Below are positions 30,001 through 33,000 of a DNA stretch of 64,000 bases, in pieces; within the stretch, counting starts at the first letter, position 1; every line of letters starts with the position of its first letter. The position numbers are program-made. Where the stretch lies: assembly GCF_044324875.1 (NCBI RefSeq), contig NZ_CP172185.1; one strand, written 5' to 3'. Source of the DNA: Escherichia coli (GTDB taxonomy: Bacteria > Pseudomonadota > Gammaproteobacteria > Enterobacterales > Enterobacteriaceae).

Positions 30001-33000
30001 TTGATGTCAGTGCTGCTGAGAAGACTGGGATGGTGAATGTGCAGCGGCTGGAGTTGATAAGAGGATAAGTGTTCCAGTAAATTCCTTACCTGTGAAATTC
30101 AGTCCGAAAGGTGAGTGTATAATCTTCTTATCCACTCACCGAGTTAAATATTTTTGCAATAAGAAATATCCCACTTCCGCCATCACTGAATGTTCTGCAA
30201 AACGACAGATACGAGTTCTCTCCTGAAACAGCCCTGCGTCCTATAAATATGCTTACGTGTGGCAATACATCATGATTATTAATAGATGCAATGAATCATT
30301 AGGTAGCAATTGATAGGTCAAAACATATAGGATAATTCTTGTGTGATCTGTATTTTGTGTAGCCTGGAAATTAGTAAAATTCCTGGAGATAATCAGAGAG
30401 GGAATTTCAAATAGTATAATAATTTCCCAAGAAACTATTCGTCGATTTTAGGAAAAGTCTGCTCAGGTATATCTACCGAGGGATAATGCTGGCTGTAACG
30501 CTGGTTAAAATAGATACACAAAATAATCAAGATGTATATTTTAATCGACGAAAATAATTACTTCCGGGATTATTGATGCGACTTAAATAACACCATTTAA
30601 ATGTGATATAAATCACAAATATGGCTGTGAAGAGGGTGCTGTAGATATAAATAAGAAGTACATGAGTGAATTTTAAATAGGGGAATAGTTTCTCGCTAAA
30701 CAATTTGTTGGTAATCAATCACATGCGTTCTGGTTTGAGGCAGATTGCAGGTGTTGTTACGCATAAAATTCATAGGTGGTATTATAATCAAGTAGTTAAC
30801 AGTAATGGTAAAAAATAATTTCTTGCGAAATTAGCAGCCCATTTTGAATAAGTGTGTTCCGGAGTAATCCAGAGCGCATGCTGCTTTACGTCTTTTTCAA
30901 GCCATGTTGGTTAAGCAAAAAGAGGTAGAAATAATTTCCTGAGAAATTAACTCAACATTCTGAAATGGCCAGTTTTCTGAAATTACCAGAAGACCGAATA
31001 CATTCATGCCTGAAGAATGGATTAGAAGAAACGAGACGGAAATAGATCTATTTATCCCTGCGGAAATAATTTCTGATGAAATTGTTTTCGGCTATTAAAA
31101 AGGTCAAACCGGCTGAGTGAATTTTATCCAGTTACAAACAAGTATTACCTCCAGTGTATTGGTAGCTGTTAAGCCAGGGGCGGTAGCATACCTGAAGAGA
31201 ATAGGATCACATCACCAAATGGCAAGAAGTGGATTTGAAGTCCAGAAAGTCACCGTAGAGGCATTATTTCTACGAGAAATACGAACACGCTTTGGTAAGT
31301 TCCGTCTGGGATATCTGTGGGCGATTCTCGAACCCTCTGCGCATTTGCTGATACTGTTGGGCATTTTTGGTTACATTATGCACCGCACGATGCCAGACAT
31401 CTCATTCCCGGTGTTTTTACTTAATGGCCTGATTCCCTTTTTTATCTTTAGCAGTATCAGCAATCGTTCTGTAGGTGCTATTGAAGCGAATCAGGGGCTG
31501 TTTAATTATCGACCAGTAAAACCCATCGATACGATCATTGCACGCGCACTGCTTGAGACACTGATTTACGTTGCTGTTTATATTCTGCTTATGCTCATTG
31601 TCTGGATGGCAGGCGAATATTTCGAGATAACAAATTTTTTACAACTTGTGGCTACCTGGAGCCTGCTGATCATTCTTTCATGTGGCGTCGGCTTAATATT
31701 CATGGTCGTTGGTAAAACTTTCCCCGAAATGCAAAAGGTTCTGCCGATACTGCTTAAGCCGCTGTATTTCATCTCCTGCATCATGTTCCCTCTACACTCG
31801 ATTCCAAAGCAATACTGGTCATATCTACTCTGGAACCCATTAGTGCATGTCGTGGAGTTAAGCCGCGAGGCAGTTATGCCTGGCTATATCAGCGAAGGCG
31901 TGAGTCTGAACTACCTGGCAATGTTCACTCTGGTCACCCTGTTCATCGGTCTGGCGTTATACCGAACGCGTGAAGAGGCAATGCTGACATCATGATTAAG
32001 ATTGAGAATTTGACGAAGTCATATCGCACGCCAACGGGGCGACACTATGTGTTTAAGGATTTAAACCTCGAAATTCCTTCAGGAAAAAGTGTTGCCTTTA
32101 TTGGTCGTAATGGTGCGGGTAAATCAACGTTACTGAGAATGATTGGCGGCATTGACCGCCCCGACAGTGGAAAGATCATCACCAATAAAACGATATCATG
32201 GCCAGTCGGCCTTGCAGGTGGATTTCAGGGAAGTTTAACCGGACGCGAAAACGTAAAATTTGTTGCGCGGTTATACGCGAAGCAAGAAGAGCTGAAAGAG
32301 AAAATTGAGTTTGTCGAAGAATTTGCCGAACTCGGTAAGTACTTCGATATGCCGATTAAAACTTACTCATCTGGTATGCGATCGCGTTTAGGCTTTGGTT
32401 TAAGCATGGCATTTAAGTTTGATTATTATATCGTCGATGAAGTAACCGCAGTCGGTGATGCCAGGTTTAAAGAAAAATGCGCTCAATTGTTTAAAGAAAG
32501 GCATAAAGAATCTAGTTTTTTAATGGTTTCACATAGTTTGAATTCATTGAAAGAGTTTTGTGATGTGGCGATTGTGTTTAAAGACGATAATGCGGTTGGT
32601 TTTTATGAGGATGTTCAGGAGGGAATAGAAGAGTATTATAGGATATATGCCTGAATAGCCTGTTTGAATAATAATCCAGCCTGTGAATGTTAACACTAAA
32701 TGATTCATGTTACATGATTAAAAATCATAGCGATAATATTTTTTAAATTTCTTGGTTTGTGTGCTGAATATTAGATTTCATTACACTATCAACCGTATGA
32801 AAAAATTACTTTTCAAGAAAGTATTTATCAAGAAAGATATAAAATCTAACTTTCCAATTTATCTCAATAGGAAAATATAAATGAATTTTTTATTCTTTTT
32901 AGAGCCTTCTATAGAGTTGAATAATCCTCTCTTCAGATATGCTACTTTAAGAAACTCTCTTCTTCCTCAAATTAAAACATTAAGAAGAATGGGGCATGAT

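Follow-up and report, generated by a model that had tools for sequence, protein, structure and literature searches.

A Conserved Six-Copy Palindrome Array in the Transcribed kpsM Leader of Escherichia Group 2 Capsule Loci

Among the major virulence factors of extraintestinal Escherichia coli are its group 2 capsules (K1, K2, K5 and others). Their expression requires that transcription from the promoter PR3 traverse a very long leader ahead of the point where RfaH is recruited. Within a 64,000-nt stretch of the E. coli contig NZ_CP172185.1 (assembly GCF_044324875.1; hereafter the window), we found that the leader of kpsM, the opening gene of region 3 of the group 2 capsule cluster, carries six co-oriented copies of the palindromic motif AAATAATTTC-N4-GAAATT(att) (hereafter the S motif), all of them between the PR3 start site and the JUMPstart element with its ops (operon polarity suppressor) sequence. 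The sites are present far beyond what chance would give, are specific to Escherichia, are transcribed, and have half-sites under selection. The array is real, strongly non-random and selectively maintained, and apparently it is undescribed, as neither the motif nor the literal site sequences were found in the searchable full-text literature, outside of which the PR3 footprinting paper lies. The leader sequences behind the lowered transcription of kpsM are not known to have been defined any further than two H-NS footprints, and a repeated, lineage-specific motif provides both concrete targets for mutagenesis and a handle on a direct regulator. We tentatively favour reading the array as a set of operator-type sites for a dimeric DNA-binding protein that would act within the transcribed leader, which we place slightly ahead of the possibility that the copies are modules of the leader RNA.

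Six palindromes between the PR3 start site and ops

An earlier note on this DNA described three perfect AATTTC-N4-GAAATT inverted repeats, 116 and 135 bp apart and each preceded by AAT, and all three are present as described (30817-30832, 30933-30948 and 31068-31083), the AAT extending every left arm to AATAATTTC. Three perfect copies per 64 kb compare with 0.03 expected, none of 100 dinucleotide-preserving shuffles reached that number (maximum, 1), and among the 35 perfect 6-4-6 inverted repeats of the window no arm other than AATTTC occurs more than once. The array is not complete at three. With one mismatch allowed a fourth copy appears (core at 30421), a repeat search connects five copies, and scanning the window with a 22-bp position-weight matrix (PWM) built from the array copies yields six co-oriented sites. 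Four are strong, at 27-29 bits (30418, 30814, 30930 and 31065, named S0, S1, S2 and S3), and two are degenerate, at ~16 bits (30553 and 30684, named S0' and Smid), with successive start-to-start distances of 135, 131, 130, 116 and 135 bp (Table 1). Elsewhere in the window the best PWM score is 16.0 (at 43457), and in ~100 kb of other chromosome sequence it is at most 10.7. Half-site hexamers also occur in isolation at 30094, 30403 and 30979, and their density is 9.6 per kb here versus 0.78 per kb in the window as a whole.

The two sides of the motif differ in how well they are kept. The left outer arm (AAATA) carries 1.6-2.0 bits versus 0.3-0.8 bits at the mirror positions on the right; for positions 9-11, counted outward from the dyad, the figures are 1.6-2.0 and 0.5-0.8 bits. 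The right-hand outer consensus remains the complement of the left despite its lower information content. S0' retains the outer arms AATAATT/AATTATT, the inner TC/GA being gone. It is conceivable, if very improbable in our estimation, that the copies are sigma70 pause modules, in which AATAAT on the non-template strand would act as a -10-like hexamer that recaptures sigma70, and RfaH would lift this brake after ops. AATAAT is the best-conserved part of the left arm in all strong copies and matches TATAAT at 5/6 positions, the key A2 and T6 among them, while the copies all lie on the non-template strand upstream of ops. RfaH competes with sigma70 for the same site on RNA polymerase. However, pausing of this kind leaves both the dyad symmetry and the conservation of the right arm GAAATT without a function, and sigma-dependent pauses are mostly promoter-proximal. 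A separate observation concerns the start site itself, which is spanned by GGAAATTAGTAAAATTCC (30366-30383), a sequence that contains the right half-site GAAATT and, 4 nt further on, AAATTC, an everted, imperfect S motif at +1.

Outside the ~20-bp core, pairs of repeat units are for the most part similar only at the level of shuffled sequence (z = -0.6 to 2). The exceptions are U1/U2 (z = 6.2), U0/U1 (4.9) and U0/U2 (3.5), scores that include the shared core. In addition, ATAATCAAG lies exactly 30 nt 5' of both S0' and S1 (window 30523-30531 and near 30787-30799), and the sequences suggest that the units of these two copies are old duplicates. The array as a whole likely originated in an old tandem amplification of a ~130-bp unit.

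The intergenic region that holds the array (window 30069-31218; 36% G+C) runs from yghD (gspM), the final gene of the type II secretion operon, to kpsM, whose ATG is at 31219 in the annotation taken from a RefSeq locus 99.9% identical to it. The distance from PR3 to kpsM is given in reviews as 741 bp, a value obtained in K5. The K5 strain Nissle 1917 carries a short allele with 116 bp fewer than the window, and its position -741 is the T marked for the start site in Table 1. CFT073 has a long allele, as in the window, and its transcription unit defined by RNA sequencing (RNA-seq) begins 846 nt upstream of kpsM (Dataset S2, PMC9765446), which falls on the very same nucleotide. Because these two positions coincide we place the PR3 start at 30375, that is, 844-846 nt upstream of kpsM in the long alleles (window and CFT073). 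The kpsM 5' untranslated region (UTR) of the window is ~845 nt long and all six copies are transcribed, so that the repeats do lie, as had been noted earlier, in the untranslated leader upstream of JUMPstart/ops. The quoted 741-bp leader is valid only for short alleles such as that of K5, long alleles having one extra module. Taken literally, 741 bp would move the start to ~30478 and leave S0 at -57, upstream of the promoter, a placement that is overturned by the Nissle 1917 and CFT073 mapping. The ops sequence is the loading point of RfaH and lies 3' of the palindrome array. JUMPstart was the sole match in an Rfam scan of 29500-32000 at E<=1, and the array copies match no Rfam family. According to a published review, the large 5' UTR reduces the transcription that reaches kpsM and contributes to temperature control.

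Published H-NS footprints at PR3 span -135 to -21 and +141 to +219, which correspond to 30240-30354 and 30515-30593 of the window. They bear on an alternative that we regard as quite unlikely, namely that the copies are nucleoid-protein sites, intrinsically bent A/T-tract palindromes that would serve as high-affinity nucleation points for H-NS/StpA filaments and impose a temperature-dependent silencing of elongation that RfaH counteracts. H-NS has been reported to occupy PR3 on either side of the start, and repression at 20 degrees C requires the downstream of these two sites; the downstream footprint, as mapped on the window, is centred near S0', which lies inside it. Moreover, the H-NS chromatin immunoprecipitation (ChIP) signal of CFT073 extends over kpsM and the kps operon, ending short of the predicted start site, and the arms contain AATT/AAATT tracts and agree at 6/9 positions with the H-NS motif tCGATAAATT. 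On the other hand, S0, a far better match to the motif than S0', sits at +44 to +65 in the gap that these footprints leave unprotected (-21 to +141). Since the best promoter-proximal copy is unprotected, the motif itself would not be what H-NS recognises in vitro, insofar as the published footprints are concerned. Nor do degenerate H-NS sites explain the strict conservation of the inner C/G or the neutral 4-bp centre.

Table 1. Position and attributes of the array copies and other elements of the kpsM leader (window coordinates; + positions are relative to the PR3 start)
Feature	Position	Strand	Attributes
PR3 transcription start	30375	+	T of TTAG[T]AAAATTCC; from Nissle 1917 and CFT073 mapping; 5' limit of the leader
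S0, AATAATTTC-CCAA-GAAACTATT	30418-30439	+	+44 to +65; one mismatch in the 6+6 core; PWM 29.2
S0' (degenerate), AATAATTAC-TTCC-GGGATTATT	30553-30574	+	+179 to +200; PWM 16.4
CRP-type site, near consensus, AAATGTGATATAAATCACAAAT (TGTGAT-N4-ATCACA)	30602-30617		~+228 to +243 of the PR3 transcript
Smid (degenerate), AATAGTTTC-TCGC-TAAACAATT	30684-30705	+	+310 to +331; PWM 15.6; aligned with S1 by MAFFT
S1, AATAATTTC-TTGC-GAAATTAGC	30814-30835	+	+440 to +461; perfect core 30817-30832
116-bp unit, S1 to just before S2	30814-30929	+	In long alleles (window, CFT073/K2); absent from short alleles (K1, K5 Nissle 1917)
S2, AATAATTTC-CTGA-GAAATTAAC	30930-30951	+	+556 to +577; perfect core 30933-30948
Conserved block GAAGACCGAATACATTCATGCCTGAAGAATGG	30989-31020		Best-conserved part of the leader apart from JUMPstart
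GATC-centred 14-bp palindrome AAATAGATCTATTT	31040-31053		Judged not part of the array
S3 extended sense-RNA hairpin	31061-31090	+	13 pairs including two G.U; -13.4 kcal/mol
S3, AATAATTTC-TGAT-GAAATTGTT	31065-31086	+	+691 to +712; perfect core 31068-31083; 93 bp 5' of ops
JUMPstart element	31152-31190	+	Rfam RF01707, 53.6 bits
ops, GGCGGTAGCATA	31179-31190	+	Within JUMPstart; +805 of the PR3 transcript

Half-sites are conserved and spacers vary among Escherichia alleles

We compiled 45 distinct leader alleles, drawing on RefSeq genomes, on species representatives and on metagenomes of the gut. The leader was found in 1720 of 5426 complete E. coli genomes, and its alleles form two deep classes, the L002 class being 76-79% identical to the others. 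Across the 45 alleles, 8 of the 48 half-site columns are polymorphic (17%; Fisher test versus the rest of the leader, p=6.5e-4), whereas 13 of the 16 spacer columns are (81%; p=1.7e-3 in the same comparison), with the remaining leader columns standing at 295/711 (41%). Between the window and the L002 class, identity amounts to 94% in the half-sites, 37.5% in the spacers and 73% elsewhere, and three of the four strong cores remain perfect in that lineage. Judged from these alignments the half-sites are under purifying selection and the spacers are not, and the combination of conserved half-sites with variable spacers makes some sequence-specific function likely.

The individual copies differ in how constant they are. 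The S3 core is unchanged in 45/45 alleles, with the spacers TGAT, TGCT and CGGC. S1 is present in 22/45 distinct alleles, with the spacers TTGC, CCGC, TCAG and TTGT, and the S2 core is constant save in the L002 class, where it has decayed (CATTTT..GGAATT with a 10-bp insertion), and in the allele L092 (AATTTT). S0 is the most variable of the strong copies and is found as a perfect AATTTCCACAGAAATT in the L002 class. As a side observation, polymorphism of the S0-S3 spacers (30427-30430, 30823-30826, 30939-30942 and 31074-31077) is above that of the surrounding leader; this excess could reflect neutrality against a constrained background, or else a mutational hot spot at the tip of a hairpin or cruciform.

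Around half of the distinct alleles are without exactly the 116 bp of the unit listed in Table 1, among them those of K1 (L008, with neuD downstream) and K5, and a coverage signature of the long allele is present in ~464 of the 1720 genomes. The deletion junction lies within the shared AAATAATTTC core, and the unit was lost through recombination between copies. This natural deletion in capsulated K1 and K5 strains shows that S1 is dispensable in nature and that the three downstream copies are not all required.

It could be argued that the array is a functionless relic, a palindrome-bearing unit of ~130 bp that was tandemly amplified and whose cores are alike through kinship of the alleles or homogenisation among the copies. 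We consider this improbable, though a relic would fit the regular spacing and co-orientation of the copies, the additional similarity of the S1 and S2 units (z=6.2), the sharing of ATAATCAAG by S0' and S1, the 116-bp deletion as an instance of recombination between copies, and the decay of two of the six. Against it stand the polymorphism counts, significantly lower in the half-site columns than in the leader around them and higher in the spacers, and the three of four cores that are still perfect in the lineage whose identity falls to 73% elsewhere. In addition, the unit flanks have diverged to background level, and cores of 16-22 bp would be short for RecA-driven homogenisation.

Relatives of KpsM were found in 38 species representatives, and the array in the 3 Escherichia loci. 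The S motif was absent from the kpsM leaders of 35/35 other-genus loci examined (Pantoea, Mixta, Rahnella, Ewingella, Kluyvera, Citrobacter, Yersinia, Phytobacter and others), and within these 35 leaders no palindrome is repeated with its arm and spacing unchanged, except for a two-copy AATAAA-N6 pair in one of them (L044). In the same loci ops is mostly 32-48 nt before kpsM, and the E. coli leader aligns with those of other genera through the JUMPstart segment only. On this comparison the S array appears Escherichia-specific, and as the motif does not occur in the other genera there is no cross-genus phylogenetic footprint. Conservation among kps leaders, which the earlier note had singled out for examination, holds for the half-sites within the 45 Escherichia alleles; it does not extend to the 35 loci of other genera, nor to S1 in K1 and K5.

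Possible operators or RNA modules

Under the operator reading one cis-regulatory module would occur in six copies, set out at ~130-bp intervals from the PR3 start to ops, in which the well-kept S0, S1, S2 and S3 would be the operators. A homodimeric protein of helix-turn-helix type would read the two 6-bp half-sites, which would lie one helical turn apart, and this candidate protein would ignore the 4-bp centre. Bound before RfaH loads at ops, it could limit or gate the polymerases that reach ops and kpsM, either as a roadblock or by aiding or hindering an H-NS filament on the leader, and such gating would account for the published lowering of transcription to kpsM by the UTR.

Both the DNA-binding reader and its roadblock or gating effect are inferred; the operator reading has the following features in its favour. 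The 6-4-6 dyad, with 10 bp between half-site centres, fits the classical geometry of a dimer operator. The S0-S3 cores are identical though the unit flanks have diverged to background, which argues that the sequence itself is read rather than a mere ability to pair. Variable loops are the reverse of what is usually seen in RNA hairpins recognised by proteins, and arm substitutions over all copies are without bias toward RNA pairs, six keeping the pair via G.U and five breaking it; both points favour a DNA reading. Finally, the CRP-like site in the same leader (Table 1) shows this pattern of constant arms and variable centre and serves as an internal positive control for how protein sites evolve, its arms being invariant in all alleles inspected around the centres ATAA, GAAT, CTTA and GTAA. 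The kps review consulted for PR3 makes no mention of CRP control of kps.

Alternatively, it is possible, if somewhat unlikely, that the copies act at the level of the RNA, as modules in which a single-stranded, A/U-rich 5' motif (AAAUAAUUUC) is sequestered in a hairpin by its GAAAUU complement. Such modules would govern pausing, Rho access, RNase E processing or the binding of Hfq or cold-shock proteins, and the stable S3 hairpin would be the chief structural element just before JUMPstart. The six copies are transcribed and co-oriented, and the conservation of 9-10 nt in the 5' arm with its flank, compared with 6 nt in the 3' arm, suits a motif and its anti-motif; the copies open with two or three A-R-N triplets, which may resemble the distal-face motif of Hfq. 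No allele lacks the extended S3 hairpin, whose energy ranges from -8.3 to -13.8 kcal/mol, with shifts of register, and which has a pair probability of 1.00 in the fold of the whole leader. It is also strand-specific, at -13.4 kcal/mol on the + versus -3.7 on the - strand, with G.U pairs stabilising the sense strand. All four transitions of S1 and S2, two of them C6>T and two A12>G, are compatible with G.U pairing, and pair 2-15 is G-C in Smid versus A-U in S1.

Other results speak against RNA modules. The stems are near-invariant: a covariation count of 27 pairs found 15 invariant and 1 changed on both sides, and this sole change (G2/C15 in Smid versus A2/T15 in S1) lies between paralogues, a comparison owing to the MAFFT alignment of Smid with S1. 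The arm substitutions, as given above, break pairs nearly as often as they keep them. The hairpins of S0, S1 and S2 are weak (-1.0 to -5 kcal/mol), and when the leader is folded at full length S1 is paired to S2, neither of them being paired locally. Loops are hypervariable, though proteins that read hairpins usually read the loops, and an identical stem sequence in old paralogues would be unexpected if pairing alone mattered. A control with shuffled flanks found the S3 extension to be only moderately unusual (fraction 0.006-0.37, depending on the allele), which weakens the RNA case, as does the lack of an Rfam match. Small isolated hairpins are predicted by nearest-neighbour folding to be folded at 37-42 degrees C, a prediction that says nothing on the thermometer idea. 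No intrinsic terminator-like site was found in 30000-31300; an intrinsic terminator or attenuator calls for a G+C-rich stem with a U run behind it, and what follows S3 is GCUAUUAAAAAGG. Separately, the T run 3' of S3 (31084-31092) varies as TTGTTTTC, TTGTTTGC, TTTTTTGC and versions longer by one or two T, and these variants alter the register of the S3 hairpin and not its stability.

The operator reading has difficulties of its own. Its half-site fits none of the motifs with which we compared it (CRP, FNR, SlyA, the LysR-type box and CodY). A symmetric homodimer site predicts neither the asymmetric conservation of the outer arms nor the shared orientation of all six copies. The location of the copies within the transcribed DNA, between 44 and 712 nt past the start, is unusual for an operator array, and their spacings lack a constant helical phase and give no indication of looping. 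A strong, strand-specific S3 RNA hairpin is present in every allele. Furthermore, S1 is deleted in most strains with the capsule retained, K1 and K5 having the short allele, and no such site is found at PR1, a promoter co-regulated with PR3, where the best PWM scores are a weak 10-13 (at 46012 and 46275). Two further ideas were examined and rejected: looping between copies through helical phasing, as the spacings are not in constant phase, and an internal promoter after each copy, as there are no consistent -10/-35 elements. The earlier note had proposed either repeated binding sites for a regulator or structured RNA elements that could affect readthrough into region 2; a sequence-specific function is indeed likely, and the present data do not decide between the DNA and the RNA level.

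In a broader and rather doubtful formulation, the array may be a negative element of the kps 5' UTR that meters the polymerases arriving at ops before they gain RfaH protection. The reader at AAATAATTTC-N4-GAAATT would then be, with the same degree of doubt, either an E. coli protein or the leader RNA itself through alternative pairings between copies. On the same rather doubtful footing, the array would add a checkpoint at the level of elongation that is peculiar to the group 2 capsules of Escherichia, and the natural loss of a module (short K1/K5 versus long K2-type alleles) would adjust the amount of capsule from lineage to lineage.

Other features of the region

The earlier note had also counted a GATC-centred palindrome, given at 31041-31054, as part of the element. 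Its position is 31040-31053, and we have dropped it from the array, as it is not conserved among the alleles (lost or disrupted in at least seven, L001, L002, L009, L010, L014, L092 and L098) and is unremarkable by chance, being one of six 14-bp palindromes in the window, with 10.7% of intergenic shuffles giving at least one. A Dam/GATC phase-variation switch of the pap or agn43 type, which would call for at least two conserved GATC sites within the binding sites of a regulator, was considered and rejected: the palindrome holds a single GATC, the whole intergenic region holds three, and the GATC is lost in several alleles.

The conserved block at 30989-31020 is identical even in the L002 class and includes the inverted repeat CATTC-N9-GAATG, and its CATGCCTGAAGA recurs as CATACCTGAAGA directly after ops (31187). 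Part of the block served as an anchor in the metagenome search, and its invariance in the loci so obtained follows from their selection. Centred ~58 bp upstream of the start is an FNR-like sequence, TTGATAGGTCAAAA (30310-30323), that is conserved in all alleles and may be the FNR site reported for PR3; the adjoining GATAATTCTTGTGTGATC resembles part of a Fur box. Just 5' of S1, AATCAAGTAGTTA (30787-30799) matches the IHF consensus WATCAANNNNTTR at every position. Directly after yghD is a hairpin with 13-bp arms, GGTGAGTG...CACTCACC (30110-30140), with arms largely conserved and a loop that differs; this is probably the terminator of the gsp operon, insulating PR3 from upstream transcription. 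A second match to the ops core, GGCGGTAG, at 38430 on the + strand falls inside a minus-strand open reading frame (37732-38982) and is probably due to chance.

Three alleles are of interest for what surrounds them. In L006 (NZ_OZ392446.1, a chicken isolate; ~2400-3927) the leader is intact through ops and then diverges, with no kpsM or kpsT annotated and a hypothetical protein next, and it seems that the leader was retained while region 3 was replaced. In L102 (Nissle 1917, NZ_CP007799.1; 12484-14235) kpsS abuts and overlaps kpsT, with no region 2 (kfi) genes between them, an arrangement that may stem from a collapse of the assembly or from a deletion in the record. L012 (NZ_CP195580.1; 2841-4195) has a truncated kpsM followed by an IS5 transposase, and only the first ~200 bp of its intergenic region are retained.

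Comparison with known systems

In a comparison with repetitive extragenic palindromic (REP) elements, bacterial interspersed mosaic elements (BIME) and enterobacterial repetitive intergenic consensus (ERIC) sequences, no S site scoring above ~16 was found elsewhere in the window, nor above ~11 in ~100 kb of other chromosome, and the A/T-rich S sequence appears unlike the REP or ERIC consensus. A phage-repressor idea was set aside: scans of viral contigs, one for pairs of sites separated by 1-30 bp and one for the whole 22-mer, yielded 11 and 23 loci, with no pointer to E. coli phage immunity regions; the matches include giant-virus contigs of metagenome-assembled genomes and large, probably A/T-rich contigs.

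On sequence grounds, none of several regulators with a bearing on kps fits the motif. For a SlyA/MarR-type site (TTAGCAAGCTAA or TTA-N6-TAA; SlyA consensus as given in PMC5797941), no TTA-N6-TAA is centred on the S dyads. For MprA, the K-12 mprA operator region is without the S motif. The LysR-type box (YbdO, LrhA) is normally an odd-length T-N11-A dyad centred on a base pair, whereas the S dyad is even-length and centred between base pairs. The LysR-type YbdO shifts a 300-bp probe upstream of kpsM that includes S2 and S3, with no site mapped, and MprA, LrhA and AutA/AutR act on kps through unmapped routes.

Closer in sequence is the CodY box of Firmicutes, AATTTTCWGAAAATT, whose A/T-rich half-site AATTTTC is near-identical to the S half-site AATTTC and in the same orientation. 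Its spacer is 1 bp compared with the 4 bp of S, which presents a different helical face, and the likeness is one of resemblance only; CodY is not known from Enterobacterales. Among RNA-level systems, the pgaA leader has six CsrA sites in a multi-site RNA leader of a polysaccharide operon, and is thus alike in holding several copies of a short motif, some of them in hairpins, within such a 5' leader. It differs in that the canonical S copies contain no GGA, that their ~130-nt spacing is far wider, and that the stem and not the loop is conserved.

As in the S array, the downstream elements of H-NS (the proU downstream regulatory element and bgl, and the sites at PR1 and PR3) are A/T-rich and lie downstream of the start in horizontally acquired, thermoregulated genes, but the S motif is unlike H-NS sites in its strict dyad, conserved G/C positions and neutral centre. 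JUMPstart/ops (RF01707) shares with the array its leader, its strand and its conservation, and acts on elongating polymerase. However, JUMPstart is common to the kpsM leaders of Enterobacterales and the S array is confined to Escherichia, and there is no similarity of sequence or structure between the two.

In geometry the nearest relatives are the operators of the CRP/FNR family (AAATGTGAT-CTAG-ATCACATTT), which are alike in their 22-bp dyad, free 4-bp centre, A/T-rich flanks and 10-bp distance between half-site centres, the S copies having the corresponding 6-4-6 core and weakly palindromic flanks. The half-site itself differs, AATTTC (ATTTC in register) standing against TGTGAT/TGTGA for CRP and TTTGAT/TTGAT for FNR, and in place of one site near a promoter the S array has six copies with asymmetric flanks over ~670 bp of transcribed leader. 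For YeiL, the third CRP/FNR paralogue, no S motif was found in the yeiL-rihB region and 49 kb around it. In mode of action the proposed roadblock would have precedents in the operators within transcription units, such as lac O2, the PurR site in purB and those of CodY/CcpA, where downstream sites reduce the number of polymerases that reach the genes. These systems have one site and an identified repressor, compared with four to six candidate sites and a roadblock that is only proposed in kps. What they have in common with the array is the position of the sites downstream of the start, along with an effect of the kind that has been published for the kps UTR.

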